From contig JADLHJ010000011.1 in NCBI GenBank assembly GCA_020848835.1, positions 10,862 through 74,861 on the forward strand: DNA of 64,000 nucleotides. The letters run 5' to 3'. The position numbers and the translations under genes are program-made. How positions within the stretch are numbered: the first letter of the stretch is position 1; every line of letters starts with the position of its first letter. The notes below the pieces were generated by a model. That model saw only the letters and a program-made list of their open reading frames with translations. It was not told where the DNA came from and made no database searches. Origin of the DNA: Candidatus Hydrogenedentota bacterium (GTDB taxonomy: Bacteria; Hydrogenedentota; Hydrogenedentia; Hydrogenedentales; SLHB01). Below are positions 14,973-56,406 of the stretch, piece after piece.

Positions 14973-14983
14973 GTAGCAGTAAC

Positions 14984-23333: not shown

Positions 23334-24815
23334 TTATTCTGCCACGGTGATGGCAAGCGTAGGCCGCCCTCTCTCGCCGGAAATTGCCGACGCCCAATAC
23401 CACGCACTCGCGTCGGGCCACGATTCTGTGTCTTTGAGCCAATCGTTCAATTCGCCGCCTTGGGGGTGGTCCCAGTTCAGCGCGATATAACATTCACGCA
23501 CACTTGTCTGGCTGCCATCCGGGCCTCGATACCAAAACCTGCTCCAGAGGCGTCCGGCCTCGTCGCGAAATGTCGGCTGTGGCGTGCATGTTCCGCCCTG
23601 GGCAAGATAGCAGTTTTGCGCTGAGTGCAAGTCACGTGTCGGCCCATCGCATAATCGCAGCAGTACATGCCTCTTGCCGTCGTGCCACCGAAATTGTGCA
23701 GACTGGCCGGGCACGTCCTGAAGCCAGGCCTTCATAGCGCCGGTCTCTTCAACGGGCTCCAACCATTTACCGTTCCATGTTTGCGGCCATGCTATCGCGC
23801 GATGCGATACTTGCGACGGTTTTGATGCAGCTTCGCTTACGCCAGAACGCACACCCGCCACCACGCACCCCATCACAAAACATACCGAGAGCAATCTCCC
23901 GGCGGGCAGCCTTGGCCACACGAGGTGCCGTCTTGCGTCCAGCCTCTTCCAACTTCTGATTCCGTTTGCGATCACTAGAAGGAGCAACGCGCATTCCGCG
24001 AACACGATAATCCCTAAAACACCGTGCTCGGGATAGTCCGGCCCGATTCCTGCCACGTACAGCGTTGCCGCGCGGTGGGCGTTCCCGAAAATCGCAAGTG
24101 CAAAAGATATTGCTATTAGAAGCGCAGTGCGCAACGGATTAAATTGGTACAGCACTGCGACACCCGCGCCCATCGCGATTGACGCCGAAAGCATGCGCAC
24201 GCCACTGCATGGCGCGTCCACAAAAAACGTCGTCGCGCCGTTTGACAGCGCGGTCCCCTCCGCCCGAATTTCCGGCCCCAGCATGAACGCAGCGATGTTA
24301 CTCGACGCCACGCGCAATGGAAATCCGATGAAGAAATCGAGCGATGTCGCAACGTGGACACATAGCAGCATTAGCACCGCGATCCCCCACGCGCCCCGCC
24401 GCGATCTTGATGCGAGCGTTCCCATCATGGTGCATCCGACAATTCCAGCAGCCAACTCACACCGAACCAACTGAGGCGCAGTAGGCCAAGTCAGCGCATA
24501 CAACCCTAACAGCACAACCGCCGCGATCAACCAACCGCGCGCCGGGGCAACGCGCAAAGGACCGCCCGACGGGCCCGTGATCAGGAACAGCCACGCGCCA
24601 ACGGCGAACAGAGCGATGACCGCGCCCATCGGCGATCCCCACGGCGCAAACCAGCGTATCCACAACTCGGGCGCTGCGGCCCAGACCGCGGCGACACTTG
24701 CCAAGACCCAAGAGAAGCCAATCAAAGTTTGGAGCGCGACGCGCTGCGGCGGCACGATCTTTGGGTGTGCGTGCATCACCAGCACGTCAATTGCTTTATT
24801 GGCGGCAGAACCCAT
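23334..24815 (-). CDS. exosortase (EpsH/Xrt family) fused to a C-terminal EpsI-like domain
   Basis: Eight-TM core with active-site motif FFVDAPCSGVRMLSASIAMG (exosortase Cys-Ser-Gly-Arg). C-terminal about 190 aa carry an EpsI-like LHSAQNCYLAQGG motif (compare HSPxxCLPGxGW). ATG at 24815 lies 2 nt after the upstream stop (TGA AC ATG). Confidence 0.75.
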   Translation of the reverse strand: MGSAANKAIDVLVMHAHPKIVPPQRVALQTLIGFSWVLASVAAVWAAAPELWIRWFAPWGSPMGAVIALFAVGAWLFLITGPSGGPLRVAPARGWLIAAVVLLGLYALTWPTAPQLVRCELAAGIVGCTMMGTLASRSRRGAWGIAVLMLLCVHVATSLDFFIGFPLRVASSNIAAFMLGPEIRAEGTALSNGATTFFVDAPCSGVRMLSASIAMGAGVAVLYQFNPLRTALLIAISFALAIFGNAHRAATLYVAGIGPDYPEHGVLGIIVFAECALLLLVIANGIRSWKRLDARRHLVWPRLPAGRLLSVCFVMGCVVAGVRSGVSEAASKPSQVSHRAIAWPQTWNGKWLEPVEETGAMKAWLQDVPGQSAQFRWHDGKRHVLLRLCDGPTRDLHSAQNCYLAQGGTCTPQPTFRDEAGRLWSRFWYRGPDGSQTSVRECYIALNWDHPQGGELNDWLKDTESWPDASAWYWASAISGERGRPTLAITVAE

Positions 24816-24817
24816 GT

Positions 24818-27550
24818 TCACGCGCGCCTTAACTGCTGCCTGCGCTGGTAGGCCACCCACGCGAGCACAATACACACAACAACAATCAACGCCCACTCGT
24901 GTGGCTCCGGCACGCCGGGTATTGCCTCTTCGTTTTTCGTGGGATCAAGACCGTGCCGCGCGTATTGTTCCATCGTTTCAAGCACGACGGCGCCGGAGAG
25001 CGGCGTTACCAACCGCGCTTCAATGGCAACCTGACGGAGCGCGTCAATCTCGTTCGACTGGTGGCTCTGCACTGCTCGCATGACAGCATCATTCACGGCC
25101 AGTCGCACAAGATGGCTTGCAGGGGGCTCAATTGCGGTTTGCACCGCAGCGTCAGAGACACCCATGGCAAACTTCGCGGAAACGGATTCTGGGGATCGTA
25201 TTTTGACGACCTGCGAAATTGTTTCTTCCAACGATTCGAATATGGGCACACGCTCGATAATCGCGAGATCGCTGCATTGCTCCAATAAGCGGTTCGGCCC
25301 GGGGACGGCCTCTATCGAGAGTATCTTCACACTCGCGCCACCGCGTCTGCGCTCCCACTGCCGCAGTGGTTCAACGGAAGATAGTTCGACCGGCAACGGT
25401 CCATGAACCCAAATCACCGTACCGCCGCTACCCGCAATATCGCAGGCATGCACAAGCGCCGGCACCTGATCGCAACCGCCTACATACTCGCGCGACGCCA
25501 GCCACTCTCCCAGCGTGGTCGAAGGCGCTGACGATTTATCTTCATAAGTCTCGACCTTGCTTCCCGCAAGCACTGCATTAACATCGACGTCGTCAGGCAC
25601 AGACGACAGAATAGACTCCCAAGGGATGTTTGTATCGCGCATCGACGCCGATCCATCCACCACGAAGCATATCGGATGCTTGCTGCCCGCATTCGGCAAC
25701 TGGCGCGTCATCGTCGCTGATTGAGTTCCCAACGTACCGAGGAAAATATCGTCCGACGTATAGGAAGCAGATACATTGATCGTTCCAGCGTCTACGCGCT
25801 GAAGATCGTTTTCAGCCAATGCGCCGCGCAACGCAATACGCCCGGGCGCCGGCTCTTCCCACTGGAGCGATTTCGACGAAGCCTCGACACCGGCATCGCA
25901 TTCCACCCATACCCCATGTGAAAACTCCGGCGGAACCGTAAAATTGCGTTCGGAGATATACGGCAAACGCAGGTAGGATTTTCCGTCGCGCTCGACTATA
26001 GGCGCGGTAACGCCGATCTTCAGTTTCATCGTGCTGTGGGCATTGATCGGAAAACATTGCAGGAGCACCTTATCGGGACCGCACACATTTAGTAACGCAG
26101 GATCGCGCCGCTGCACGACTGCCACGCTTTGATACGCCTGGCGCACCTGGTCGCGCCCGCCAAACGCGGCTTCGCGTTCTTCCCCGTTAATCCAAAGCGT
26201 CAACCTGCTGGCAACGGCACCGTGCGGCAAGTCAATCTGTGCGCGGGCCTCGCGCTGCCTCCCGGACGCGTTGTTGAACTCAATCGTCCATTCCATATAG
26301 GCGAGGTGCGGCGATCCTTCCGCACCCAGGCGCATGATGTTTACATCCATCGTGCTCGCGTGCAGGGACAATCCGTGCACGCGGCCTGCAACACTGGTTC
26401 CGCCGATTTCGCTGTCAGTCACGCGAGCGTCTTCAAAATCCTCAGCCATCAGGGTGCGTGTACGAAACGTGCCGCGCGTGTCCGGTCGCGGCACGGCGTT
26501 ATATGGCACGCCTGTCACGCGAAAATACAAGTCGCGACAAGCGCCTTGGCGCGCAATGTCTTCGGCGGTCCAACGTCGCGTGGGCCCAATCCCGCGCACA
26601 ATCGGCGAATAACACGTCAACAACACCTGATGTTCGAGATGAAGGTTACGAATGAGGGCGATGCCGCGGTCGCGTTCAGAGGGATTCTCGCTCAGTGCCA
26701 TTGGAATCACTTGTGCGGCAATGAGCCGCGGCCCCGCGTAGATTGAACCCGCCGCAATCACCAACAGAGTGCCCGCAGCCGAATACCAGACTGCCTTAGC
26801 CCAGTGCGTGGAAGTTTCCGCGCGCAACCGGTAAAGCGCGCGCATTTGGAACAGGCCCGCAATGAGACAGAACAGCGGTGAAAAGCCCATTATCCCCAAG
26901 CCGAAAGCCAGAAGCGCAAAAACAGCGATCGGCAAAATAGGGATATACACCGCCGCATAAATCAGCGAGAGAGTTGTTGCGTATGCGTTGGCAAAAAATA
27001 CGGCGTTGTGCCAACGCGCGATCACCTGAGAACTTTCAGCGGGCTTGCGCGTAAGCATGTACAGGAAGACGTCTGTCGCAAGTATGGAAGCCAGCAGCAA
27101 GACGCCGGCGGCAAGGTGCCACGCGGTGGGAATCGGATCGGCGTACAACTCCGCCATGGCCCCCATCGAAAGCTCGAACATCAGGGAGAGCGCGGGAATG
27201 ACTAAACCACAGAGAATTACAAAACTGCGGCCGCTCACCGAATAGATCGGCCTCACTTTTTTCAACCGCTCCTCTACCGCAACGTGCGATCGCCCGTTGC
27301 CATTTGATCGCGCGACGCTATCGCCGGCGACGTCGGCAACCTGTTCTGGCGTGCCGATGCTGGCAATGGCATGTTTCACGTGGACGTCTGTGACGAGCAG
27401 TGGCGATTTACCTTCTGCTTCTGTGCGGATGTGTTGCTTCAGCCCGTCGACGATTTCGTCTGCGTCGTCGCCGTTTGCGCGCGACAACGCGTCTACCCGC
27501 GCGAGATATTCGTTCAGTTGCTTCTCGGCCTCGGGAGTCCATTGCGTCAT
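24818..27550 (-). CDS. HAAS(DUF1700)-like N-domain, multi-TM, VIT-like plus vWA, PEP-CTERM-tailed protein
   Basis: Residues 1-75 (AEKQLNEYLARVDALS...DEIVDGLKQHIRTE...IASIGTPEQVA) have the HAAS/DUF1700 pattern. About six TM helices at residues 105-285. VIT-like block at about 385-520 (TIEFNN, LWINGEE). vWA MIDAS DGSASM at 632-637. Terminal GVPEPHEWALIVVVCIVLAWVAYQRRQQLRRA is a PEP-CTERM-type sorting signal. Confidence 0.75.
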   Translation of the reverse strand: MTQWTPEAEKQLNEYLARVDALSRANGDDADEIVDGLKQHIRTEAEGKSPLLVTDVHVKHAIASIGTPEQVADVAGDSVARSNGNGRSHVAVEERLKKVRPIYSVSGRSFVILCGLVIPALSLMFELSMGAMAELYADPIPTAWHLAAGVLLLASILATDVFLYMLTRKPAESSQVIARWHNAVFFANAYATTLSLIYAAVYIPILPIAVFALLAFGLGIMGFSPLFCLIAGLFQMRALYRLRAETSTHWAKAVWYSAAGTLLVIAAGSIYAGPRLIAAQVIPMALSENPSERDRGIALIRNLHLEHQVLLTCYSPIVRGIGPTRRWTAEDIARQGACRDLYFRVTGVPYNAVPRPDTRGTFRTRTLMAEDFEDARVTDSEIGGTSVAGRVHGLSLHASTMDVNIMRLGAEGSPHLAYMEWTIEFNNASGRQREARAQIDLPHGAVASRLTLWINGEEREAAFGGRDQVRQAYQSVAVVQRRDPALLNVCGPDKVLLQCFPINAHSTMKLKIGVTAPIVERDGKSYLRLPYISERNFTVPPEFSHGVWVECDAGVEASSKSLQWEEPAPGRIALRGALAENDLQRVDAGTINVSASYTSDDIFLGTLGTQSATMTRQLPNAGSKHPICFVVDGSASMRDTNIPWESILSSVPDDVDVNAVLAGSKVETYEDKSSAPSTTLGEWLASREYVGGCDQVPALVHACDIAGSGGTVIWVHGPLPVELSSVEPLRQWERRRGGASVKILSIEAVPGPNRLLEQCSDLAIIERVPIFESLEETISQVVKIRSPESVSAKFAMGVSDAAVQTAIEPPASHLVRLAVNDAVMRAVQSHQSNEIDALRQVAIEARLVTPLSGAVVLETMEQYARHGLDPTKNEEAIPGVPEPHEWALIVVVCIVLAWVAYQRRQQLRRA

Positions 27551-28036: not shown

Positions 28037-28672
28037 CTATTTGGTGCGTTTTCGAAGACCCATCGCAGCGAGTCCCAGGCCGAGCAATCCGACAGTGGCC
28101 GGCTCTGGAACCACGCAACCGTTTAGGCTACCGGCATAGACACTGTCGTCGCAGGGACCTTGAGTCCATTTTACTGCGGCTGTGTTGCAGGAGAAGTCGT
28201 GGCATCCGCCAGTTGGCAGACCGGTGAAAAAGTCGAGCGTATCTAAATTGCTGCCAGTGACGAGGAAAGTTACGGTCACATCGTTTCCATTGGTGAGACC
28301 CCAGTTTCCCCAACCCATGTCGAACTCGTAGTCGTAGGTGCCGAAGGGGCCTGCGGTGGAATTGGGAGTAAGCGATGTGTTCGAAAGCGGGCCGTCGCTG
28401 AGAATAGACATCGACGTTACGTCGCTCGACACATTGAAATACAATTCGGAGAGCGTATAGTCGTTCGGCCAACTGGTCTGGTTGAATATCTGCATCGTCA
28501 ACACATTGCTGCCGGCGTCGAAGCCCCAGATCACTTCGGCGTCAAACACGCCTGCGTTCGGCTGATCGTTATCGCTCAACTGCCCGCTAAACAGAATGAC
28601 TTCCGCGTTCGCGGATAATGTGGCAATGGCGATCAGCGCCAATGTCAGGATGGGTAAATAACGTGTCTTCAT
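28037..28672 (-). CDS. PEP-CTERM sorting-domain protein
   Basis: Signal peptide. C-terminal VPEPATVGLLGLGLAAMGLRKRTK. Confidence 0.8.
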   Translation of the reverse strand: MKTRYLPILTLALIAIATLSANAEVILFSGQLSDNDQPNAGVFDAEVIWGFDAGSNVLTMQIFNQTSWPNDYTLSELYFNVSSDVTSMSILSDGPLSNTSLTPNSTAGPFGTYDYEFDMGWGNWGLTNGNDVTVTFLVTGSNLDTLDFFTGLPTGGCHDFSCNTAAVKWTQGPCDDSVYAGSLNGCVVPEPATVGLLGLGLAAMGLRKRTK

Positions 28673-29032: not shown

Positions 29033-29815
29033 TTAGGCGCGTTTCATGCGACGGCGCAAACCGGCCGCGGCGAGGCCGAGTCCGAGTAACGCGAGGCTGG
29101 AGGGTTCGGGAACAACGACTTGCACGTCGCCTTCCGTAATCGCCCACTCTTCAAATCCGCCGTTGTTGTTCTCGTTCACGCCGAAAAGCGAGTAGAGATA
29201 AACATACTCATCCCCAGTTGCGAACACGCTGCTCGGAACATAGAACAGCATGTCGCCACTGCCGCTACCACTGTTGAGATTCGCATCAACGAGGATATAT
29301 GAATCTTCCACTGCGTCAAGGTCGTAAACGAGCGTAGAGTCCGCCAAGTCGATAATGCCGGCTGTAAATGTCTCCGCACTCTGATTCGGCGTGCCCGACG
29401 TGAAGATCTGAATCTCATCCAGCGAAATAAAGGAGTCGCTACCCGACTGGTTCACGTCCAGAATAAATTCGCGATACTCGACACCATCGATTACGACAAC
29501 CGGGATATCCGTCAGTAAAAGTTCATGGTTGAAGTTGTCAGGCGCACCATTGTCGAGCGTTCCGTTTTCGGTGGTGTTATACGCCTGAACCGTGTCCGTA
29601 TTATTACCGATCTGCACAAAGCTATCGATCGTTCCAGTACCTGTTGCCTGCCCGTCCCACTGAAGAAACAAGGCGCCATTGACTTCGCCTTCGGACCCTA
29701 CAGTTGTAAGATCGACGGTTTCTGCTGAAACGACACCGGCGAAGGCCAACGCGCTCAGCATTAGAATTGTTGATTGAATTCCTCGCCGCATACTCATTTT
29801 CATCATCCTTTGCAT
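29033..29815 (-). CDS. PEP-CTERM sorting-domain protein
   Basis: C-terminal VPEPSSLALLGLGLAAAGLRRRMKRA. Signal peptide after MQRMMKMSMRRGIQSTILMLSALAFAGVVSA. Several in-frame ATGs lie between 29789 and 29815. Confidence 0.8.
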   Translation of the reverse strand: MQRMMKMSMRRGIQSTILMLSALAFAGVVSAETVDLTTVGSEGEVNGALFLQWDGQATGTGTIDSFVQIGNNTDTVQAYNTTENGTLDNGAPDNFNHELLLTDIPVVVIDGVEYREFILDVNQSGSDSFISLDEIQIFTSGTPNQSAETFTAGIIDLADSTLVYDLDAVEDSYILVDANLNSGSGSGDMLFYVPSSVFATGDEYVYLYSLFGVNENNNGGFEEWAITEGDVQVVVPEPSSLALLGLGLAAAGLRRRMKRA

Positions 29816-30129
29816 TGTGACACTTAGCAGCTCGCCCACACTGCGGATGAATGAGCAAACCGCATGCCGAAGGCTAATAACGGGCTTTGTACGCCGAAAT
29901 ATTGCTACGGAAATGTAAAAGGAACGCGCCAAGGCGAGTGACAACAATATCTTAGGAAAAACATAGGGGTATTGCCGGAAGGCGTAGGAAATCGTAGCGA
30001 AAACTCGTAGGAAATCACAACTGCATGCGATAAAGCCGACAAAGCCCTGATAAAGGTTATTCAGCGTTGCACAATAGTTTCATAGTATAGTTGTATATAT
30101 AAACAAATCAACCGCCCAAATCAATTCTA

Positions 30130-38314: not shown

Positions 38315-41300
38315 ATGTCACACTTTTGCCCCGCCATGGCACATGATAGGTGCAAGGAGACAAGGGCAGTGCTGGGTATTGCGCGAAATAACGATGTTGA
38401 GCTGATCCGGAGGACACTGTCAGGACAACGCGACGCGTTTGGTTTGCTGGTGGATCGCTATCTGCGTTTTGCCTATGCCATCGCGTACGCACGGGCGCAC
38501 TCGCGTACGGATGCCGACGACGTTGTCCAAGACTCCTTCCTCACCGCTTACCAGCAACTGAATACCCTTCGCGAACCCGCACGGTTCTCCGCGTGGCTGG
38601 CCACGATCGTGCGCAGGTTGTCTGGAAAATCGAACCAGCGCGCGCGACTCGCCGAGTCGGCGGAATCAGCCGCGGCGCCAAGCGAGTTAGTCCATCCAGA
38701 ACACGAACGCGATGAACTCCGCGCACTTATCCGCACGGAAGTACAAGCGTTGGATGAATCGGACCGCGAAGTCATTCTGCTCTGCTACTTCGCAGGCAAG
38801 TCCGCGGGCGAAATTGCAGCGGCACTGGATTCTACCCCCGCGGCGATTCGTAAACGCCTCCAGCGCGCCCGCGAAAAACTCGGCGAGCGGCTCCTCTCGT
38901 CCATCGCTGAAACGTCCAAACCAAATACTGACGCAAACAAACAGATCATGGGCGTTATCGCTGCGGCGCCTACAGTGTGGAACGTGACAACGTCCAGCAC
39001 AGGCGTGTTAACAACAGGAGGCGCATTTGCAATGAAAGTCGCGGCCGTTTTAGCAGTGGTTCTGGCTCTGGGCGGCGGCGCCTACAGTTTGCGCAACCGG
39101 AGTCTTGACGCAAATAAGCCGTCCGCGCCAACGCAATACGCAAAAACTTCTTCGACTTCTGCCCCCAGACAAGTGCCGAAAGCTGATACTGAAGTCGCGA
39201 CAAATGAAGCAGATAAAGCCGCAGATAAATGGGTATCCGTCGCTCCTAAATATCCCTTTCGCTTCGAAGCTATTGTGCTCGATCCGAATGGAGAGATTGC
39301 GGTAGACGTTCCGGTCCAAATCAGAGTGCTCGAAAGATACTCGCCATCCTTCAATGGGACGGATAGGGTCATTGCCGAAGCTTCCGTGAGAAGCGACGAA
39401 AACGGTTGTGTTGTTGCGCAACTAGAGAGCGGGCCGCAGTCAGATCAAGGCTATGTCTACATCGAGCTCTCTGCGCAACGAGATACTACAGGCCGCTATA
39501 CAAAAGCGATGTTTTCACAGTCAACAACGAGACTCTACGCGCTTCAACTCATATCATTGGGAACCATTCGCGGACTGGTGCGAGATGCTCTGGGCAACCC
39601 CATCGAGAATGCTCGCATAGAACCACGCGCCTACGATCGTCCAGATGGTCAATCTCACATGTATCAATGGAACGAAAGCGGCGTCGTCACTGCCAATGAC
39701 GGCACTTTTAGAATTGACCACCTGTACGCTGGTCGTTGGCAATTCCAAATCATTGCCGACGGTTTCGCGCCCAAGTTGACCGAGTTCATTCCGACCGAAT
39801 CAAACCTTGAGATAACGCTGGATCCGGGTCTTCGTCTGGCAGGAACGCTCATCGACGACGCTTCTGGAAACGTAGCTCCCAACGTACGCTTGCAACTCTC
39901 TTCGAAACAGATGTGGCAGGAGCGACATCAATCGACTACAGACTCGAATGGCCACTTTACCTTTTCCTCGCTGAGCAGTGGTGTGTATCAATTGAATACA
40001 GATGATCACCCCCACTACATCGCGCTGGAGCAAAGCGAAATCACAGTGCAGAATTCGGTCGAAGACTTGGCGATTCACCTTGAAACTGGTGGAATCATCA
40101 CTGGCCAACTTGTTGATGCGGATTCGCAGAAAGGCATTGCGGGCACAAAAGCCGTGGCGAATCTTACTGCGTCATCGCAAACGAAACACCCAAGAAACCG
40201 TTCGGAGGCCACGACGGACAAAAACGGGAATTATCAAATTGAAGGACTTCCCTCGGGCGAATATAAGGTGATGTTCTGGTCACCCGACGCGTTACCTAAA
40301 GCAACACCAGAATCAATCCAATTGATGCCCACTACGAACATTGCGGCGGGCAAGACGGTCGAGTTACATGCCCACGCCATTGACCGCCGAAACCAAATTC
40401 GAGGTAATGTGCGCACGATAGACGGCAAAGCCATTCAAGGGATATATGTCTTCGCAGTCGCCCTCGATCATCCGGAGTGGTACGACCCCACCATTATTTC
40501 TTTCAACGGCGTGAGGACCGATGAACACGGTACATTTGTAATTTATCTTCCCGGGACTTCGCAAAACACTTTCGTTATTGCAAGAGGTCTTGGATTTGCC
40601 ACTCGAGAATCAGGCCCGTATATCGTCCATGGCCAGCCAGACGATGCGATAAATCTCATCGCATATCCCGTTGGCCGAATACTTGGTCAGGTAATCGATT
40701 CGCGCGGCGCACGAATTTCCCGGGCACGGTTTACATACCGGGGATCGGCTTCGCCGTTGCAGCAGACCAACACCAAACCCGGTTCTTCCAATAGTTTGAA
40801 TAGACTGCTTGAACGAGATCAATTATCCGAAGACGGTAATTTTTATCTTACGAATCTTCCTCCTGACACTTACACCTTTGAATACAAAGGAAGTTCGACA
40901 TCCGCAACTCTCGAACAAGCCAAGACGCTTCGAAGTTTTAGTATTTCGGCGGCCCCTTTGGGTAGCGCGATCCTTTCTGGAAACGTCACGATCAAGAAGG
41001 TAGCGGCAGAAGACGTGCTCATTCAGATATTGGGAGGGACCGAAGGAAGCAGTAGTGAGACTAAAACCAATGCCTATGGAAACTTTTCACAGGTTGATAT
41101 GCCCGAAGGCGAATATAATCTAATCATAAATTGCCGGGACGACGCAGACGGTGCGCGCATTGTGCGTCGTTCATCTACAAAAGTGACTCTTCCCGCGTCA
41201 GGCACGACGACGCTCAATACGGACTTCGCAACGGGTGATTGTGGAATCGAGGGACATATTAAAGAGAATGGGAAAGCGGTACGCGCCGAATTTTACATGG

Positions 41301-41833
41301 TTGAAGCGCTGCCAGATGATCGAGACGAGACAATTAGCGTTACGGCAAATGACAAGGGATACTATCGCGTGACGGGACTGAGGCCCGGTGAGCACGTAAT
41401 TCGGCTAATGCGGAAGGCCCCTTCCGATCCGAATCAACGTTACGAAACACCTTTCAAAGTCGAACTGCAATCCGGCCAAATACTGAACCATGATATTTCG
41501 TTTGGTACGGGTTCGATAGTAGCGGCGTGCTCGGGCGTACGCGCCGGGTTTGATGGACGACTTCTAATTGTACCGGGAGAGAACAATACCGAAAACATGA
41601 CGCTGTTAGGCGCGTATTCGCTAATTGAAAAGGCAATCTATGACAAAGAAATCACAACGGACGAAACACTAATCGCGAAAGAGGTGCCGGAAGGACCTTA
41701 CACAGTCTTGTGGGCAACTTACGATGCAAAGGCTGAAACCGATGAAGCGCGTTTCGCCTCGACCGAGTTCATAGCCGCGATAGCGATTGTGGAAACGGGA
41801 CAGGAAACAAAGATGCAGCTTTCGCTTCGTTGA
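38315..41833 (+). CDS. ECF sigma-70 factor fused to a TM helix and a large extracytoplasmic CarboxypepD_reg-like repeat region
   Basis: Sigma region 2 (VVQDSFLTAYQQL). Region 4 HTH (LDESDREVILLCYFAGKSAGEIAAALDSTPAAIRKRLQRAREKL). A TM helix MKVAAVLAVVLALGGGAY at about residue 240. About 900 aa follow with repeated GxxxGxVxDxxGxPI blocks. Confidence 0.7.
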   Translation: MSHFCPAMAHDRCKETRAVLGIARNNDVELIRRTLSGQRDAFGLLVDRYLRFAYAIAYARAHSRTDADDVVQDSFLTAYQQLNTLREPARFSAWLATIVRRLSGKSNQRARLAESAESAAAPSELVHPEHERDELRALIRTEVQALDESDREVILLCYFAGKSAGEIAAALDSTPAAIRKRLQRAREKLGERLLSSIAETSKPNTDANKQIMGVIAAAPTVWNVTTSSTGVLTTGGAFAMKVAAVLAVVLALGGGAYSLRNRSLDANKPSAPTQYAKTSSTSAPRQVPKADTEVATNEADKAADKWVSVAPKYPFRFEAIVLDPNGEIAVDVPVQIRVLERYSPSFNGTDRVIAEASVRSDENGCVVAQLESGPQSDQGYVYIELSAQRDTTGRYTKAMFSQSTTRLYALQLISLGTIRGLVRDALGNPIENARIEPRAYDRPDGQSHMYQWNESGVVTANDGTFRIDHLYAGRWQFQIIADGFAPKLTEFIPTESNLEITLDPGLRLAGTLIDDASGNVAPNVRLQLSSKQMWQERHQSTTDSNGHFTFSSLSSGVYQLNTDDHPHYIALEQSEITVQNSVEDLAIHLETGGIITGQLVDADSQKGIAGTKAVANLTASSQTKHPRNRSEATTDKNGNYQIEGLPSGEYKVMFWSPDALPKATPESIQLMPTTNIAAGKTVELHAHAIDRRNQIRGNVRTIDGKAIQGIYVFAVALDHPEWYDPTIISFNGVRTDEHGTFVIYLPGTSQNTFVIARGLGFATRESGPYIVHGQPDDAINLIAYPVGRILGQVIDSRGARISRARFTYRGSASPLQQTNTKPGSSNSLNRLLERDQLSEDGNFYLTNLPPDTYTFEYKGSSTSATLEQAKTLRSFSISAAPLGSAILSGNVTIKKVAAEDVLIQILGGTEGSSSETKTNAYGNFSQVDMPEGEYNLIINCRDDADGARIVRRSSTKVTLPASGTTTLNTDFATGDCGIEGHIKENGKAVRAEFYMVEALPDDRDETISVTANDKGYYRVTGLRPGEHVIRLMRKAPSDPNQRYETPFKVELQSGQILNHDISFGTGSIVAACSGVRAGFDGRLLIVPGENNTENMTLLGAYSLIEKAIYDKEITTDETLIAKEVPEGPYTVLWATYDAKAETDEARFASTEFIAAIAIVETGQETKMQLSLR

Positions 41834-45438: not shown

Positions 45439-45789
45439 CGAATGCGAATTCGGATTGTCAGCACTCCACAAGGCGAAGCGCCGGAAGAAGTCCGGAGGGG
45501 TTGGATTGGGCTGGAATTGCCGCTGCCGCCAAAGTTCAATGGTCCCGCGACTTTTCTTGGAACAAGCGTTCTTGCTGCGCCTCAGAACTGGATTGGGCAG
45601 ATAATCGCCATGCTGACCGGACGTGCGAGAATACGCACGGGATACAGCGTGGAAACCTCAGACGCGCTTCGCCTGCTGGTGCGACACAACCCGGACGCCG
45701 CGGAGTGGTGGTACAAGAACACACCGCGACTAGTTCATCCCGGGCGCTATTTCGTGTTCGCAGCCGATTGTTGCGAAGAAGTGGAGTGA
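45439..45789 (+). CDS. hypothetical protein (weakly supported)
   Basis: 116-aa ORF MRIRIVSTPQGEAPEEVRRGWIGLELPLPP...WWYKNTPRLVHPGRYFVFAADCCEEVE with balanced composition. No recognisable domain. It overlaps the convergent downstream gene by about 40 nt. Confidence 0.3.
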   Translation, partial: RMRIRIVSTPQGEAPEEVRRGWIGLELPLPPKFNGPATFLGTSVLAAPQNWIGQIIAMLTGRARIRTGYSVETSDALRLLVRHNPDAAEWWYKNTPRLVHPGRYFVFAADCCEEVE

Positions 45790-46499
45790 CTGCGAAATAG
45801 AGCTGCAGGAAAGTCTTTGATCCACGTGACGTGCCCATCCATGTATAGCACGTTGTTACCATTGGCTGACTTGAGTGGCGGCGTGATGCTAATCACGACC
45901 GGTATTTTGGCCTGTGTCTCGGCGGGCGCTGATGCATTCGTTGTGTCGGTTATAAATTGCCGTTCCACGCCCTCTTTGAGCCTGTAGAAAGTTTTGCCTT
46001 CGACAACAATGTCATCGCTCAACTTTTCTGAACTGAGCCCGCGCCGCGCTTCGATTAGCTGCGCCAACTCGACGTTATCTTCCGTCGCCCACCCGGTGTA
46101 CGCGTAACTTTGGGCCGCGAGCCGTGTAAGCGCCTCCCAATCTATTGGCTGTTGTGTGGACAGTGTATTAATTTGACCGCGCAATTCTTCCGCGTTCGGC
46201 AGATTGGGACTCACCATAATGGAAAGATCAGATAGGTATTCGGGATAAACTGATTGCAAATCGAACATCCAAATGTCAGCGTATCGCGTCGTGGGCGGGA
46301 ACAAATCATCGTGCTCACCCGAGTACATCTTAAAGACAATGCCTAGCTGCTTGAGATTGTTCTGATCGCCCGCCCGAGGCGATCCCGATCGTGATCTGCC
46401 TAATGCTGGCAAGAGAACTGTGCCAACAATAGTGAGGACAACAGCAACGCCTAGAACCTCGAACCACGGGAACCATCGTGCCTTTTGACCCGAATCCAT
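45747..46499 (-). CDS. DUF1559-like (H-X9-DG) protein with plain TM anchor instead of prepilin leader
   Basis: QNNLKQLGIVFKMY and C-terminal NVLYMDGHVTW match the DUF1559 core. N-terminus is WFPWFEVLGVAVVLTIVGTVLLPA rather than a G-FTLIE prepilin motif. Confidence 0.65.
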   Translation of the reverse strand: MDSGQKARWFPWFEVLGVAVVLTIVGTVLLPALGRSRSGSPRAGDQNNLKQLGIVFKMYSGEHDDLFPPTTRYADIWMFDLQSVYPEYLSDLSIMVSPNLPNAEELRGQINTLSTQQPIDWEALTRLAAQSYAYTGWATEDNVELAQLIEARRGLSSEKLSDDIVVEGKTFYRLKEGVERQFITDTTNASAPAETQAKIPVVISITPPLKSANGNNVLYMDGHVTWIKDFPAALFRSHSTSSQQSAANTK

Positions 46500-46572
46500 G
46501 TGTGAACCTCCCTGGATGATGCTTTCCGGCGTGTCTGACTTGCTTCTTACTACGCCGTCGCCGCAGGAAGGT

Positions 46573-47505
46573 TCATTTTATGAGTAGAGAAATATTGGGT
46601 AGGTTGCCCTCGAAGGACACGTGCCCATCCAAATACAACACATTCCCGCCTTCAGCATTTGTCGTGCAGTTAAACATTACTGGAATGGACTTCTGTAAGA
46701 AATCCGGCCCCGCCGCCGGACCGTTGATGTCGGTAACAAGGAAGCGCGCGACGCCTTCCTTCAGGCGGTAGTAATATTTTCCATTCCATTCCAAATGGTC
46801 ATCCAGTTGCTGCGGATTTACCCGGCGCGCGTTGGAGAGCGTCTCCAACTCTGAAACGTCTAGCATTCCCCAACCGGTATAGGTGTAGCTCTGCGCTGCG
46901 ATACGCGTAATGGCTTCCCAATCTGTCGGTGTCTGTGATACGAGCGCGTTGAGTTTTTTGACCAATTCCTCTGCGTCCGGCCGATTGGGGTTTACAAGAA
47001 CGGCAAGGTCTGTAAGATATTCCGGGTACACTGCGCGGAGATCAAACATCCAAACATCGTTATACGGCGCCATGGGCGGGTACTTTTCCCCGGGATCATC
47101 GCTCGCATACATTTTGAACACAATGCCGAGCTGTTTGAGATTATTTTGATCGCTGGCACGGCGGGAAGCCTCACGAGCCTGCGGCAGAAGAAGTGTACTA
47201 AGCATCGCGATCACGCAAAGCGTCAACAACAGCGTCGCCAACCTCAGGCCGCGATCGGTGCGTTTCACAGCTTCGGCATGGGCCGCCTCATTCACTGCGG
47301 CAACGGTGGATTTCGCGAGACCGAGCGGGGCTTGTTCTTCAGGCAGCGAACCGAGCACATCGAGCATACGACGTTCATGCGCAAGTGCTTCTCGCCACTC
47401 AGCAGATTCCGCAAGGTGTCGATCAACCACCACGCGTTCTGACGGTGAAAGTGTCTCAAGCAGGTAGCCACGTACCAGCCTTGATTGAACGTCGTGCTCT
47501 GTCAT
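46573..47505 (-). CDS. anti-sigma factor (zinc-less ASD) fused via TM helix to a DUF1559-like ectodomain
   Basis: N-terminal LVRGYLLETLSPSERVVVDRHLAESAEWREALAHERRML equals the anti-sigma HLAxCxxCRxEL motif with the Cys replaced by Ser/Trp. TM LRLATLLLTLCVIAMLSTLLLP. Then SDQNNLKQLGIVFKMY...GGNVLYLDGHVSF. 4-nt overlap (ATGA) with the upstream ECF sigma gene. Confidence 0.65.
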   Translation of the reverse strand: MTEHDVQSRLVRGYLLETLSPSERVVVDRHLAESAEWREALAHERRMLDVLGSLPEEQAPLGLAKSTVAAVNEAAHAEAVKRTDRGLRLATLLLTLCVIAMLSTLLLPQAREASRRASDQNNLKQLGIVFKMYASDDPGEKYPPMAPYNDVWMFDLRAVYPEYLTDLAVLVNPNRPDAEELVKKLNALVSQTPTDWEAITRIAAQSYTYTGWGMLDVSELETLSNARRVNPQQLDDHLEWNGKYYYRLKEGVARFLVTDINGPAAGPDFLQKSIPVMFNCTTNAEGGNVLYLDGHVSFEGNLPNISLLIK

Positions 47506-48107
47506 GGCGCGAGGTCCTTCAATTCATCCATCAAAAATTGCACGGCCTTATTCATGCGCGATTTAACGGTTCCCTGCGGGATAAACAGTGCACGCGCGAT
47601 TTCGCTGTACGGCATATTTTGATAGCGGGCCATCACAAACACTGTTCGTTGTTTAATGGGTAGTCGCTGCAAAGCCGAGTGCAATCGCGCTTGCAGTTCG
47701 GCCGCGCCCGCGTCCGCAGCGGGATTCGGACGACCATCCGGTAGCGTATCAACGACTGGTTTGGCGTCTGGATCACGCGATGCCGGCGCATCGAGCGGAA
47801 TCGTCGGTCTTCGGCGACGCGCGCGTAGTTTATCGCGGCAAAGGTTCGTTGCGATGCGATAGATCCACGGCCGCACGGGCGCACCCCGACGGTACCGTGG
47901 GCGGTGTTTATACACGCGAAGGAAAGTCTCCTGGAAAACGTCGCGGGCATCTTCCCTATTATCGAGTACACGAAAGGCATAGTTGTACAAGGGAGACTCA
48001 TAACGGTGAACGAGTGTCTCGAAAGCCTCGCCGCTATCATCACAGATCGCGGCCATGAGCCTTTCATCGCTCTCGTCAGTGCCATTCGCATGGGTTGAAT
48101 ACGTCAT
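47502..48107 (-). CDS. ECF (group IV) sigma-70 factor
   Basis: Region 2 (DVFQETFLRVYKH...WIYRIATN). Region 4 (LPIKQRTVFVMARYQNMPYSEIARALFIPQGTVKSRMNKA). Confidence 0.85.
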   Translation of the reverse strand: MTYSTHANGTDESDERLMAAICDDSGEAFETLVHRYESPLYNYAFRVLDNREDARDVFQETFLRVYKHRPRYRRGAPVRPWIYRIATNLCRDKLRARRRRPTIPLDAPASRDPDAKPVVDTLPDGRPNPAADAGAAELQARLHSALQRLPIKQRTVFVMARYQNMPYSEIARALFIPQGTVKSRMNKAVQFLMDELKDLAP

Positions 48108-48378
48108 AGCCGCCTGATTGGTTCACGCTTACGGCCGTTGCTCTGTTGAAACCCGTGCTCACCCTGAATGTGCCAGCCCTTCAGGCCTTGAATAAGAAGG
48201 GGTGGTTGGCTCGTACCTGGGCCTCACGGGCCCACGCTAGAAACCGTATCGCGCCTTCAGCGCTGAATACGTCCGACCCGTATGTCGTGTACTCGAGAAG
48301 GTTTCAGCAGAGCAACGGCTAAGTATAGCCGCCGCACTGAGAAATCGTGATGACATTTTTTTTGGAACGTCGTCCGAC

Positions 48379-52952: not shown

Positions 52953-53630
52953 ATGAAATTCCGCTTTTTATTTGGCGTGGTGCTGGTCGCCGTCGCGTGC
53001 TTTGCGCCTGCCGGCGCTGAAGTCATTTATGACAACGGGGATTCCATCCAGTCAATTGGTTTGCCTGGGATTGATCCCTTTTTCATGCCCGCAGATAATT
53101 TCGTGCTGCAAACTGGCGCAAGCACAATCACGGAGTTCCATTGGACGGGTTATTACGCATTGAATGAAGTCGATAAAGTTGTTCCTATCGACGATTTCAC
53201 CGTCTACATTTTCGCGGACAATGGGGGCAGCCCGGGCACCCAACTTTTCAGCTTCGATGATGCCGTGACCGCCACCGCGACCGGCACAAATGCCTTGGGT
53301 ATTTTTCCCGAGTATGAATATGTGATGGCGATTGATCCCTTGGCGCTCACCGCGGGTACAACGTACTGGATCGGAATCCTGAACGATATTACGTTTCCGG
53401 ATCCTGTTAAGGGCGTAACTCCTGTTCAAAACGCTTGGTTCTGGTCTACGTCGCAAGTACAGACTGGCGATGCGCACCAAAAGTTTGTGACCGCCTGGCT
53501 TGACGCGAATGTTGAATTGGCCTTTGACTTACACGGTCCCGGCGTAGTCCCAGAGCCTGCGACGATGACATTGCTGGGTGCTGGACTCGTGGCGATCGCA
53601 GCGCGCCGCAGATTCATGCGCGGGAAATAG
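52953..53630 (+). CDS. PEP-CTERM sorting-domain protein
   Basis: Signal peptide. C-terminal VPEPATMTLLGAGLVAIAARRRFMRGK. Paralog of 54426..55076 (shared DVIYDNGD and FHW motifs). Confidence 0.8.
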   Translation: MKFRFLFGVVLVAVACFAPAGAEVIYDNGDSIQSIGLPGIDPFFMPADNFVLQTGASTITEFHWTGYYALNEVDKVVPIDDFTVYIFADNGGSPGTQLFSFDDAVTATATGTNALGIFPEYEYVMAIDPLALTAGTTYWIGILNDITFPDPVKGVTPVQNAWFWSTSQVQTGDAHQKFVTAWLDANVELAFDLHGPGVVPEPATMTLLGAGLVAIAARRRFMRGK

Positions 53631-55241: not shown

Positions 55242-55850
55242 ATGCCCTACACATTGCCCCCGCTGCCGTATGCGTTCAACGCGCTGGAACCGCACATCGA
55301 CGCGAAGACGATGGAAATCCACCACGGCAAACACCACCAGGCCTACATCACGAACGTGAATACGGCGCTGGAAGGCACGGGGATTGATGCGCACCCCATC
55401 GAAGAGGTGTTGAAGAACATCAACGACGTGCCGGAGGCGAAGCGCCAGGCGGTTATCAACAATGGCGGTGGCCACGCGAACCACACCCTGTTCTGGCAGA
55501 TCATGGCGGCAAACGCGGGCGGTAAGCCGAGCGGCGATCTGGCGAAGGCCATCGACGCAGAGCTGGGCGGCTTTGAGAAATTCCAAGAGGATTTCACGAA
55601 GGCGGGGACGACGCGTTTCGGTAGCGGCTGGGCATGGATCGTCGTTGGCAAAGACGGCAAGTTGCAAGTCATCAGCACCGCGAACCAGGATTCGCCGTTG
55701 ATGCAGGGCCTCACGCCCATTCTTGGCATGGATGTGTGGGAGCACGCGTATTACCTCAACTATCAGAACCGCCGGCCGGATTACATCAAGGCGTTTTTCA
55801 ACGTCATCAACTGGCCAAAGGTCGCGGAATTTTACGCTGCCGCGAAATAG
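55242..55850 (+). CDS. Fe/Mn superoxide dismutase
   Basis: [40 protein letters not shown] and C-terminal DVWEHAYYL signature. Confidence 0.9.
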
Positions 55851-55908: not shown

Positions 55909-56016
55909 GCCCAACGGGTTGCATTGACGAACCCCGCGAAGAGGTTTAGCGTATAGGTATAAGCGTGTACGCGCGCATGGTTTTCCAGGTGCCGCAGTTG
56001 TGGCGAGGTCCGGGGC

Positions 56017-56406
56017 ATGGGTATTACCTACGAAATTCAAGACGACGTAATTCGCTTCACCACGCATGGCGCGGTGGATTTCGTCGAAGGGTTGCATGTT
56101 CTTCAATGCGGCTTTGCCGAAGCTTCCGATATCACAGCAAAGGACGCGTCGCGGAAATGGTTTCTCCTGTTCGACGTGCGCGAGTCGACTGAATCGCGTA
56201 CATCTGGCGAGTTGCGCGACATCGCGACGCTAATCGCATCACATCGCGGCATGCTGAAGGGACGCAGCGCGATCATCGTTTCAAAGCCGTTGTATTACGG
56301 ACTCGGGCGGATGTTTGCGGTGTTTATGGAGAGTTTTGGTTTGACGACTTCGGTGCTGCATTCGGATGAGGAGGCGCTGCATTGGCTGCACGCGCCGTTG
56401 CATTGA
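56017..56406 (+). CDS. hypothetical protein
   Basis: 129-aa ORF with good composition. No recognisable motif. Confidence 0.45.
   Translation: MGITYEIQDDVIRFTTHGAVDFVEGLHVLQCGFAEASDITAKDASRKWFLLFDVRESTESRTSGELRDIATLIASHRGMLKGRSAIIVSKPLYYGLGRMFAVFMESFGLTTSVLHSDEEALHWLHAPLH

Follow-up and report, generated by a model that had tools for sequence, protein, structure and literature searches.

The window analysed here is a 64-kb stretch of DNA from the little-known phylum Hydrogenedentota. It contains three co-oriented genes on the (-) strand, which encode an ECF sigma factor, an anti-sigma factor and a pilin-like paralog of the DUF1559 subfamily. The longest open reading frame of the sigma factor gene spans positions 47502..48107 (201 aa), its probable true extent being 47502..48056 (184 aa, from M18). 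The anti-sigma factor gene occupies 46573..47505 (310 aa, stop codon 46573..46575), and the gene of the paralog, which has the ribosome binding site GGGAGG, is found at 45747..46499 (250 aa). The sigma stop codon and the anti-sigma start codon share the four nucleotides ATGA. The reading frames have the coordinates given in the original prediction, and the pairing it described, an ECF sigma factor with a downstream partner overlapping it by 4 nt, agrees with the reading frames, the ATGA overlap and the domain scores of the sigma factor.

The sigma/anti-sigma pair is kept, always with the 4-nt overlap, in the window and in all ten related loci examined (11/11), and a DUF1559-like gene lies downstream of it in 10 of these 11. 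An orthologue of the paralog has the equivalent position in loci L001 and L002. The fusion of an anti-sigma domain to a DUF1559 domain defines a family that falls into about 85 clusters of full-length proteins at 50% identity, and its architecture and sigma adjacency are kept in every related locus examined. No literature was found on this fusion family. Searches of the 64-kb window for type IV pilus or type II secretion machinery and for canonical prepilin DUF1559 genes found none of these.

The sigma factor has only the regions sigma2 and sigma4, as expected of an ECF (group 4) sigma-70 factor. The Pfam models Sigma70_r2 and r4_2 match it with 68.8 and 55.4 bits, respectively, and its score with the sigma70-ECF model TIGR02937 is 106 bits, above the curated family cut-off of 42.9. 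There is strong support for the translational coupling of the sigma and anti-sigma genes.

An ECF-type motif, TGAACC-N16-CGTA, is situated at 48100..48125 (-), with the -35 element at 48125..48120 and the -10 element at 48103..48100. This motif, P1, is the putative autoregulatory promoter of the sigma/anti-sigma operon. As a sequence motif it has the AAC-containing -35 element and the CGT-containing -10 element of ECF autoregulatory promoters, for which -35 GAAC and -10 CGTA is the typical layout (PMC5758882). Because P1 overlaps the ATG at 48107, translation of the sigma factor probably starts at the next in-frame ATG, that of M18 at 48056, which is preceded by GAAAGG. In L002, L003, L089 and the P0042 locus, gene calling gave the sigma orthologues a length of 182-184 aa.

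A second motif, P2 (TGAACC-N15-CGTA, 46551..46575, (-)), is found about 50 nt upstream of the start of the paralog gene, and its TGA is the stop codon of the anti-sigma gene. The exact P1 motif recurs at the equivalent place before the sigma gene in L001-L006, L089 and L090, and versions of it that differ by one base are present in L007 and L088. Homologues of P2 (aaTGAACCtt-N13-CGTAgt) are situated behind the anti-sigma gene or ahead of partner genes in L001-L007, L018, L088 and L089; in L090, partner gene and P2 are both absent. Among the 87 loci compared, exact TGAACC-N16-CGTA is confined to sigma loci, and the strict motif has a single match in the 570,299 bp of 76 unrelated control loci. 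Both P1 and P2 are seen in independent Hydrogenedentota loci. It is thus probable from the motifs that the sigma factor recognises TGAACC-N15/16-CGTA and drives its own operon together with the pilin-like paralog, a putative direct target.

In most relatives P2 probably drives a multi-beta-sandwich membrane protein of about 750 aa and a short DUF1559 protein. The gene of the larger protein, the main P2 target in five relatives, is missing from the window locus, so that the output may differ between lineages. In L004, three P2 sites precede genes arranged in tandem; two of these genes, of 242 and 256 aa, encode paralogs of the anti-sigma ectodomain with up to 68% identity to it.

Residues 1-84 of the anti-sigma factor (47254..47505, (-)) correspond to a cytoplasmic class I anti-sigma domain, as indicated by the AF2 model, the Foldseek matches, the family profile and the overlap with the sigma gene. 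The model (pLDDT 91.9) has helices at residues 3-15, 21-33 and 35-53, followed by the start of a helix spanning residues 63-106. This helical bundle has the fold of solved anti-sigma domains. The best Foldseek matches are all to such domains, namely those of RsiW (5wuq), RskA (4nqw), RslA (3hug), MucA (6in7) and ChrR (2q1z), with probabilities of 0.87-0.98 and TM-scores (target) of 0.5-0.66, albeit at E-values of only about 1. When a profile built from the fused members alone was compared with the PDB, RsiW was matched with E = 7.8e-4 and RskA with E = 4.4e-3.

In the segment HLAESAEWRE of the anti-sigma domain, H30 is retained, and S34 and W37 take the place of the two cysteines (H30-x3-S34-x2-W37), in agreement with the original prediction that the zinc-ligand cysteines are replaced. 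The window protein consequently is without the H-x3-C-x2-C zinc motif, which is the mark of the ZAS subclass only; 12 of 40 fused homologues have the motif at the aligned position. Class I anti-sigma groups commonly mix zinc and non-zinc members (PMC7406223). The window protein stays under the cut-offs of zf-HC2 (PF13490; 16.8 bits, cut-off 22.2) and of the NCBIfam antisigma model NF052375 (29.4 bits, cut-off 100), while zf-HC2 matches 10 of 28 relatives at E <= 0.01, the best at 8e-8. The search with anti-sigma models that had been proposed as a check is thus divided in its outcome, these two models falling short and the profile and structure comparisons matching RsiW and RskA. The N-terminus does align with known anti-sigma families. 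It is strongly supported that the 310-aa protein is a class I anti-sigma factor coupled to the ECF sigma factor, which it would bind.

The membrane helix of the anti-sigma factor (47185..47253, (-), approximately residues 85-107; hydropathy segment, residues 85-111) is homologous to the alpha1-N helix of type IV pilins. It aligns in register with the sequence G|FTLIE...LLPAL of canonical homologues, having Thr91 at position +5 and a 3-residue deletion past Pro108, the equivalent of pilin P22. In the profile comparisons, a hydrophobic alpha1-N running into an amphipathic alpha1-C is homologous to that of pilins: the profile of fused members alone matches geopilin (9egp, E = 3.9e-4), PilA (8tj2, 3.5e-3) and GspG (5wda, 0.06), and a broader family profile matches PDB pilins with E-values down to 3e-9. 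The N-terminus of the paralog, with a transmembrane segment at residues 9-36, has W9 at -1, F10 at +1, E14 at +5 and P31 at +22.

The site for the prepilin peptidase and for methylation (Gly-1, F+1, E+5) is incomplete in both window proteins. In the alignment register, Gly-1 is present in none of 40 fused proteins compared with 65-66 of 67 canonical ones, and E+5 in 9 of 40 fused, 4 of 8 short and 64 of 67 canonical proteins. A search with N_methyl models (PF07963/TIGR02532) had no match in the window proteins or in the fused proteins. The original prediction of plain membrane anchors lacking a prepilin leader was correct in that a working leader is absent, but the helices are in-register homologues of pilin alpha1-N. 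Judged by these alignments, the two segments are pilin alpha1-N helices that have lost the peptidase site, not generic anchors. There is likewise strong support from sequence for the paralog being a prepilin-like protein in which the Trp at -1 has put the peptidase site out of action. It should therefore remain anchored in the inner membrane.

The extracytoplasmic domain of the anti-sigma factor (46576..47184, (-), residues 108-310) was assigned to the DUF1559 subfamily by its homology to canonical proteins. It contains QNNLKQLGIVFKMY at residues 120-133 (QNNLKQ, 120-125), RLKEGVARFLVTDING at residues 247-262 and GGNVLYLDGHVSF, which includes D293-G294-H295 (DGH). Canonical proteins having both N_methyl and DUF1559 match the whole ectodomain with E ~1e-30 over ~58% of the query. 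The family-invariant residues P143, P161, Y209, D293 and V296 are all present, as are nearly all near-invariant ones, among fused members that have diverged by ~40-60%. The paralog shares 51% identity with the ectodomain over 187 aa and 35% with the canonical protein P0050 over 234 aa (E = 3e-32), which bears out the predicted DUF1559 paralog next to the anti-sigma gene (45747..46499).

Pfam and TIGRFAM models recognise only the two end motifs of the ectodomain. PF07596 scores 25.4 bits with the anti-sigma factor (gathering score 23.3), aligning residues 109-136 with model positions 2-29 of 268; neither it nor any other Pfam model matches the paralog. The scores with TIGR04294 (H-X9-DG) are 15.8 bits for the anti-sigma factor and 15.7 bits for the paralog, under the cut-off of 19. 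Both window proteins retain the DG of this motif and lack its His, which is found in 11 of 40 fused and 67 of 67 canonical proteins; the spacing in this DUF1559 subfamily is X10. The conserved Cys pair of the family, lost in both window proteins, is jointly lost in 33 of 40 fused members and jointly present in 6 of 40. No solved structure matching the ectodomain was found with Foldseek on the AF2 model, and the term "pilin fold", as applied to the globular part, refers only to the homology of the alpha1 helix and the order of the secondary structure elements.

The assignment of the ectodomain as a genuine DUF1559-subfamily homolog is nevertheless solid at the level of sequence. Of the H-X9-DG module originally proposed, the whole-length homology is upheld and the motif His is absent. 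The support from hidden Markov models is thinner than had been assumed, since PF07596 passes its gathering score by aligning the N-terminal motif only. Structural prediction, also suggested as a check, was informative for the N-terminus, which resembles anti-sigma domains, and yielded no solved counterpart of the ectodomain. The central proposal, of an ECF sigma factor paired with a membrane anti-sigma factor that uses a DUF1559 module outside the cytoplasm, is sustained by the agreement of profile, fold and conservation, and by the zinc motif that 12 of 40 relatives retain. The sensory role of this domain, also part of the proposal, is putative.

The locus is likely to constitute a three-gene regulatory module, made up of a chimeric pilin-derived anti-sigma factor, its ECF sigma factor and a paralog of the sensor as the output. 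In the chimera, an anti-sigma domain of the RsiW/RskA type takes the position that a short prepilin leader has in DUF1559 pilin-like proteins, the membrane helix being the pilin alpha1-N and the outer part the DUF1559 globular head. Such a fusion keeps the N-in/C-out topology that prepilins and anti-sigma factors have in common. In the resting state, the sigma factor would be held at the membrane by the anti-sigma domain. The ectodomain may bind the same ligand or partner as the DUF1559 pilin-like proteins, and this binding could make the anti-sigma factor accessible to regulated proteolysis, as with RsiW and RseA. The freed sigma factor would then transcribe from P1 and P2, producing more of the membrane-anchored pilin-like paralog. 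Gene structure, homologies, their conservation and the promoter motifs are established from the sequences; that the anti-sigma factor binds sigma, that the promoters are used, what the signal is and how sigma is released are inferred. To our knowledge, no ligand, partner or regulator has been described for any DUF1559 protein.

The window pair resembles SigW/RsiW of Bacillus subtilis, RskA/SigK, RslA/SigL, ChrR/SigE and MucA/AlgU in having a two-domain ECF sigma factor and a co-transcribed, overlapping anti-sigma gene. As in other class I pairs, an N-terminal helical anti-sigma domain is followed by a single transmembrane helix and an extracytoplasmic C-terminal domain. The style of the autoregulatory promoter (-35 GAAC, -10 CGTA) is that of sigma-W (PMC5758882), although here it is a sequence motif only. 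Unlike in those pairs, it was a type IV pilin-like DUF1559 protein that gave rise to the transmembrane helix and ectodomain, and the regulon appears to consist of a sensor paralog rather than of detoxification or envelope genes; proteolytic release is assumed. Zinc-binding class I members differ further in that the window protein has Ser and Trp in place of zinc ligands.

With the DUF1559/SBP_bac_10 proteins (PF07596) of Planctomycetota, Verrucomicrobiota and Hydrogenedentota the window proteins share the alpha1 helix and the motifs NNLKQxG..KMY, REGxERFxITDINNP and DG(H). Canonical members have a short leader and G|FTLIE, whereas the anti-sigma factor has a cytoplasmic anti-sigma domain of ~85 residues and the paralog a Trp at -1. 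Both window proteins also depart from the canonical ones in the loss of the C-terminal motif His and the Cys pair.

Two other systems offer analogies. In Clostridium thermocellum SigI/RsgI, the anti-sigma ectodomain copies a domain of the sigma-induced proteins, so that the sensor "sees" the targets of the output proteins. The window sensor may likewise be a copy of an output-protein domain, although RsgI has a different N-terminal anti-sigma class, SigI belongs to a different sigma family, and the RsgI ectodomains bind carbohydrates as known ligands. In Pseudomonas aeruginosa, PilS-PilR controls pilin expression, PilS sensing unassembled PilA. By analogy, a membrane sensor could monitor pilin-like proteins through their N-terminal helix with a pilin-like output, but PilS-PilR is a two-component system and PilS is not derived from a pilin.

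The second analogy leads to a reading that is possible, if well short of probable: the anti-sigma factor would be a pilin mimic that gauges the membrane pool or assembly of DUF1559 pilin-like proteins, with no external ligand. Contacts with the P2-encoded paralog, either within the membrane through alpha1-N and residues of the E+5 type or homotypically between ectodomains, would let the paralog feed back on its own synthesis. Consistent with this, sensor and output are paralogs in the window and in L004, the membrane helix is an alpha1-N, and the Glu at +5 occurs in exact register in some fused proteins and half of the short partners. Moreover, the polar core motifs NNLKQ, REGxERFxITDINNP and DGH are common to sensor, partners and canonical proteins, and one shared protein partner therefore fits better than diverse ligands. 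However, the anti-sigma factor of the window and the proteins closest to it have Thr, Gln or Ala instead of E+5 although the module is still kept, and the short partner next to the sensor is just ~30% identical to it in five relatives. That the anti-sigma factor reports the pool, assembly or partner occupancy of the DUF1559 system, and so tunes non-cleavable, membrane-retained paralogs, is accordingly put forward as a tentative and rather speculative proposal.

A DUF1559 part acting as a mere periplasmic stuffer or anchor, left over from the gene fusion, appears unlikely. The system would then answer to envelope stress in general, with proteolysis set off by unfolding, or to no specific signal; generic envelope damage is the trigger of many ECF systems, and the loss of the disulfide pair and of the His of H-X(9/10)-DG can be read as relaxed constraint. 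Yet the invariant and nearly all near-invariant residues persist across the diverged fused members, and the joint loss or retention of the cysteines indicates that structural selection is still acting. The apparent regulon is, besides, of the same protein family as the sensor: the promoter motifs suggest that the sigma factor drives a paralog of the sensor paired with it, and a dedicated circuit is likely on this account. Release of the anti-sigma domain, with or without sigma, through a cut by the prepilin peptidase (PilD/GspO) at the cytoplasmic face is very improbable. Counting from Pro108 places Gly86 at -1 (RG|LRLAT), but a Gly is so placed only in the window protein and the 93%-identical P0002, and in none of 40 in the alignment register; F, T and E are replaced by L, R and T at positions +1, +2 and +5, and the N_methyl model finds no fused protein. 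Hardly any credence can be given to the view that there is no true pair, the sigma adjacency being incidental and the N-terminus something other than an anti-sigma domain. The scores of the window protein under the zf-HC2 and NCBIfam cut-offs would suit it, but it is disfavoured by the 4-nt overlap in 11/11 loci, by the matches to RsiW, RskA, RslA, MucA and ChrR, and by the zinc motif at the aligned position in 12/40 homologues.

ECF sigma/anti-sigma pairs are common, and novel ectodomains on such pairs are not rare. What sets this case apart is where the sensor comes from and the logic it follows: a pilin-like protein turned anti-sigma factor in exact register, with the prepilin leader swapped for a sigma-binding domain and a sigma factor that appears to induce paralogs with a disabled peptidase site. 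Some DUF1559 members are thus apparently built for membrane retention and not for pilin-like processing. The locus would provide a first regulatory handle on this very large uncharacterised family. If the pilin-mimic reading is true, it would be the first sigma/anti-sigma switch on a pilin scaffold, and the first defined circuit and experimental entry point for the family. With one sigma factor, one anti-sigma factor, two short promoters and one output protein, the module makes a small, portable test system, in which transcription could serve as the readout of partner binding by a DUF1559 domain.

The expansion of the DUF1559 family ranks with the largest unexplained ones in the PVC superphylum and neighbouring groups, planctomycete, verrucomicrobial and Hydrogenedentota genomes each carrying from dozens to a hundred paralogs. 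Counts of 41-100 genes per planctomycete genome have been given (PMC8567305), and P. limnophila has 68 paralogs, two of them essential (PMC10632474). Among the matches listed in a genome scan, planctomycete and verrucomicrobial members match by the alpha1 region only, and the full head domain occurs nearly only in MAGs labelled Hydrogenedentota.

The sigma factor, the anti-sigma factor and the paralog are encoded by three minus-strand ORFs, all found where they had been predicted. The ECF sigma factor ORF (47502..48107, 201 aa) matches TIGR02937 with 106 bits (cut-off 42.9), as well as the Pfam domains Sigma70_r2 and r4_2. An ATGA common to both genes forms the predicted 4-nt overlap with the anti-sigma gene (46573..47505), whose 310-aa product consists of a class I anti-sigma domain, a pilin-type helix and a DUF1559 ectodomain. 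The paralog of this ectodomain (45747..46499) has 250 aa. The anti-sigma motifs quoted in the original prediction are present: HLAESAEWRE (H30, S34, W37), QNNLKQLGIVFKMY at residues 120-133 and GGNVLYLDGHVSF with D293-G294-H295. An identical NCBI entry from a Candidatus Hydrogenedentes MAG is named "DUF1559 domain-containing protein", and public annotation of the 310-aa protein says DUF1559 or H-X9-DG protein and nothing more.

The assignment of an anti-sigma domain to the N-terminus is borne out, and the class I type is indicated by the fold and by profile matches to solved anti-sigma domains. In an AF2 model based on 115 homologues (pLDDT 91.9), three N-terminal helices are followed by a long membrane-crossing helix (residues 63-106) and an alpha/beta C-terminal domain. 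Its best fold matches in the PDB are all anti-sigma domains, namely RsiW, RskA, RslA, MucA and ChrR, with probabilities of 0.87-0.98 and E near 1. RsiW (E = 7.8e-4) and RskA (4.4e-3) are also matched in sequence by a profile made solely from 28 fused homologues, which carry an anti-sigma domain and a DUF1559 ectodomain. Ten of these 28 members match zf-HC2, and the window protein scores 16.8, under the cut-off of 22.2. The H-x3-C-x2-C motif is retained at the aligned position in 12 of 40 fused homologues, most others having Ser and Trp. The loss of the Cys residues is ordinary, because the mixing of zinc and non-zinc members within class I groups is documented (PMC7406223). That the N-terminal region is something other than an anti-sigma domain is essentially excluded.

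The predicted DUF1559 match is partial for the anti-sigma factor: PF07596 scores 25.4 bits (gathering score 23.3), but the alignment covers residues 109-136 only. TIGR04294 scores 15.8, under its cut-off of 19, and the paralog has no match in Pfam; HMM support from the window proteins alone is thin. The whole ectodomain is matched at E ~1e-30 by thousands of canonical proteins, that is, prepilins with N_methyl and DUF1559 domains, and one of these aligns with the paralog at E = 3e-32 (35% identity over 234 aa). The anti-sigma ectodomain and the paralog are 51% identical over 187 aa. Judged from these alignments, the homology of both to DUF1559 proteins is unambiguous. Of 40 fused members, 33 lack both residues of the conserved family Cys pair and 6 keep both. 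This joint loss or retention speaks for continued structural selection on the fused members.

The transmembrane segments had been described as plain anchors replacing the prepilin leader. This description does not stand, as the segment is a pilin helix in which the fused proteins run in register with their canonical relatives. The canonical proteins have a Gly directly before the cleavage site, followed by sequence that aligns in register with the fused proteins. The fused-only profile matches geopilin, PilA and GspG at their alpha1 helices, as does a broader profile, down to E = 3e-9. The Gly at -1 is present in 65-66 of 67 canonical proteins, in one of the eight short DUF1559-like proteins encoded downstream (short partners) and in none of 40 fused proteins; Glu at +5 is found in 64/67, 4/8 and 9/40, respectively, with Gln in 6-7 more of the fused proteins. 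The window paralog keeps the canonical spacing (W9 at -1, F10 at +1, E14 at +5, P31 at +22) and, by its sequence, is a prepilin whose cleavage site is putatively dead. At +5 the window anti-sigma factor carries Thr, and three residues are deleted after its Pro108. Counting from Pro108 (pilin P22), its Gly86 (47248..47250) falls at prepilin position -1, RG|LRLAT. This Gly is common only to the window protein and its 93%-identical relative, and is treated as incidental for that reason. Three proteins (P0078, P0119 and P0055) have ectodomains of the same DUF1559 subfamily behind other long N-terminal cytoplasmic or membrane modules, e.g. DUF4190 (PF13828). These modules differ, and the prepilin leader was therefore replaced more than once.

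The fused architecture constitutes a family. Among the best 150 representatives (50% identity), about 85 fit the profile end to end, and the named members are from Hydrogenedentes/Hydrogenedentota MAGs. A profile search of genome contigs (at least 600 matches) is dominated by the generic NNLKQ motif; among the matches listed, planctomycete and verrucomicrobial genomes match in the alpha1 region only. Gene contexts were taken from ten related homologue loci, and every one of them has the 4-nt overlap between ECF sigma and anti-sigma genes. In L001/L002, L003, L004, the P0042 locus and the window, the downstream genes include one or more close paralogs of the sensor ectodomain. A protein of ~750 aa and a more distant short DUF1559 protein are found downstream in L003, L005, L007, L088 and L089; L090 has no partner gene. 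Two further arrangements occur among the homologues. Giant relatives of 930-1462 aa (P0121-P0124, of which P0122 was read entire) carry 4-7 DUF1559-like heads in tandem behind a single TM helix at the N-terminus. P0200, P0207 and P0162 (474-532 aa) combine ECF sigma factor, anti-sigma domain and DUF1559 ectodomain in one polypeptide; they represent natural sigma/anti-sigma fusions or, alternatively, gene calls with a frameshift at the 4-nt overlap.

The ECF-type promoter motif P1, an exact TGAACC-N16-CGTA (48125..48100, minus strand), precedes the sigma gene. The exact motif is also found before the sigma gene in L001-L006, L089 and L090, and one-base variants in L007 and L088. P1 overlaps the ATG at 48107, and the true sigma start is therefore most likely M18 (48056), with GAAAGG ahead of it; orthologues are called at 182-184 aa. 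The second motif, P2 (aaTGAACCtt-N13-CGTAgt, 46575..46551, minus strand), has the anti-sigma stop codon as its TGA and lies ~50 nt upstream of the start of the paralog. In every locus with partner genes, these are preceded by homologous sites, L004 having three copies, and L090 lacks both partner and P2. Control DNA from 76 unrelated loci (570,299 bp) contains a single copy of the strict motif. A -35 GAAC with a -10 CGTA is typical of ECF promoters in the classic, sigma-W-like style (PMC5758882). Scans of the locus for sigma-70 promoters and intrinsic terminators gave hits at chance level only; no terminator separates the anti-sigma gene from the paralog. We conclude that the sigma factor probably activates its own expression and, directly, that of the pilin-like paralog. 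A similar motif, CGAACC-N16-CGTATA (55928..55953, plus strand), occupies the intergenic gap between a Fe/Mn superoxide-dismutase-like gene (55242..55850) and an ORF of 129 aa without family match (56017..56406, plus strand). It precedes this ORF by 64 nt and could mark a further target of this or a related sigma factor.

In the relatives, P2 would drive the ~750-aa proteins (L003 7086-9284, L005 6010-8274, L007 6264-8582, L088 6059-8245, L089 6077-8398). These are homologous to one another, have no match in Pfam, NCBIfam or PDB sequences and no homologue within the window, and are unrelated to its DUF4139 protein. The model has a signal peptide, a beta-sandwich array and three C-terminal TM helices, with a loose resemblance only to ribophorin I/Ost1. 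They share a stretch of 20-28 residues, RLREGxERFLITDINxP (tblastn against the window, E = 2.8e-4), which is also the top-conserved internal motif of the DUF1559-like ectodomains, to which these beta-sandwich membrane proteins are otherwise unrelated.

The chimeric architecture, its conservation and the paired promoter motifs are established at the level of sequence. In the proposed mechanism, the anti-sigma domain would sequester the sigma factor, and the ectodomain would perceive a ligand or partner bound by the DUF1559 family. Regulated proteolysis would then free the sigma factor, which may induce the membrane-retained pilin-like proteins. The main alternative, that the pilin-like sensor takes inventory or provides feedback through contact with the paralogs that form its output, or with other members of the DUF1559 family, is a possible but tentative reading. 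Less likely are two others. A passive ectodomain is doubtful, and release of the anti-sigma domain through cleavage by prepilin peptidase is highly improbable, having been rejected because the Gly at -1 is not conserved.

The few papers on DUF1559 (PMC8567305, PMC10632474) describe a family that has expanded massively and whose function is unknown. Literature searches found nothing tying DUF1559, pilin-like or pseudopilin domains to anti-sigma factors and nothing relevant on Hydrogenedentes and pilins; the main text of the ECF reclassification paper mentions neither pilin, prepilin nor Hydrogenedentes. The module varies a type of system that is already known and does not establish a new one; what makes it valuable is that it gives an orphan family a compact circuit open to testing.

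Elsewhere in the window, an EpsH-family exosortase and three PEP-CTERM proteins are encoded at scattered positions (23334..24896, 28037..28672 and 29033..29947, minus strand; 52953..53630, plus strand). A multi-haem PSCyt1/PSCyt2/PSD1 protein of 1793 aa and the DUF1501 protein after it (9591..16411, plus strand) form a pair typical of planctomycete-like genomes. A protein of 1172 aa (38315..41833, plus strand) has an entire N-terminal ECF sigma factor (Sigma70_r2 at 45-102, r4_2 at 138-189) and a very long C-terminal extension of CarboxypepD_reg/prealbumin-like repeats, an unusual giant sigma-fusion architecture.
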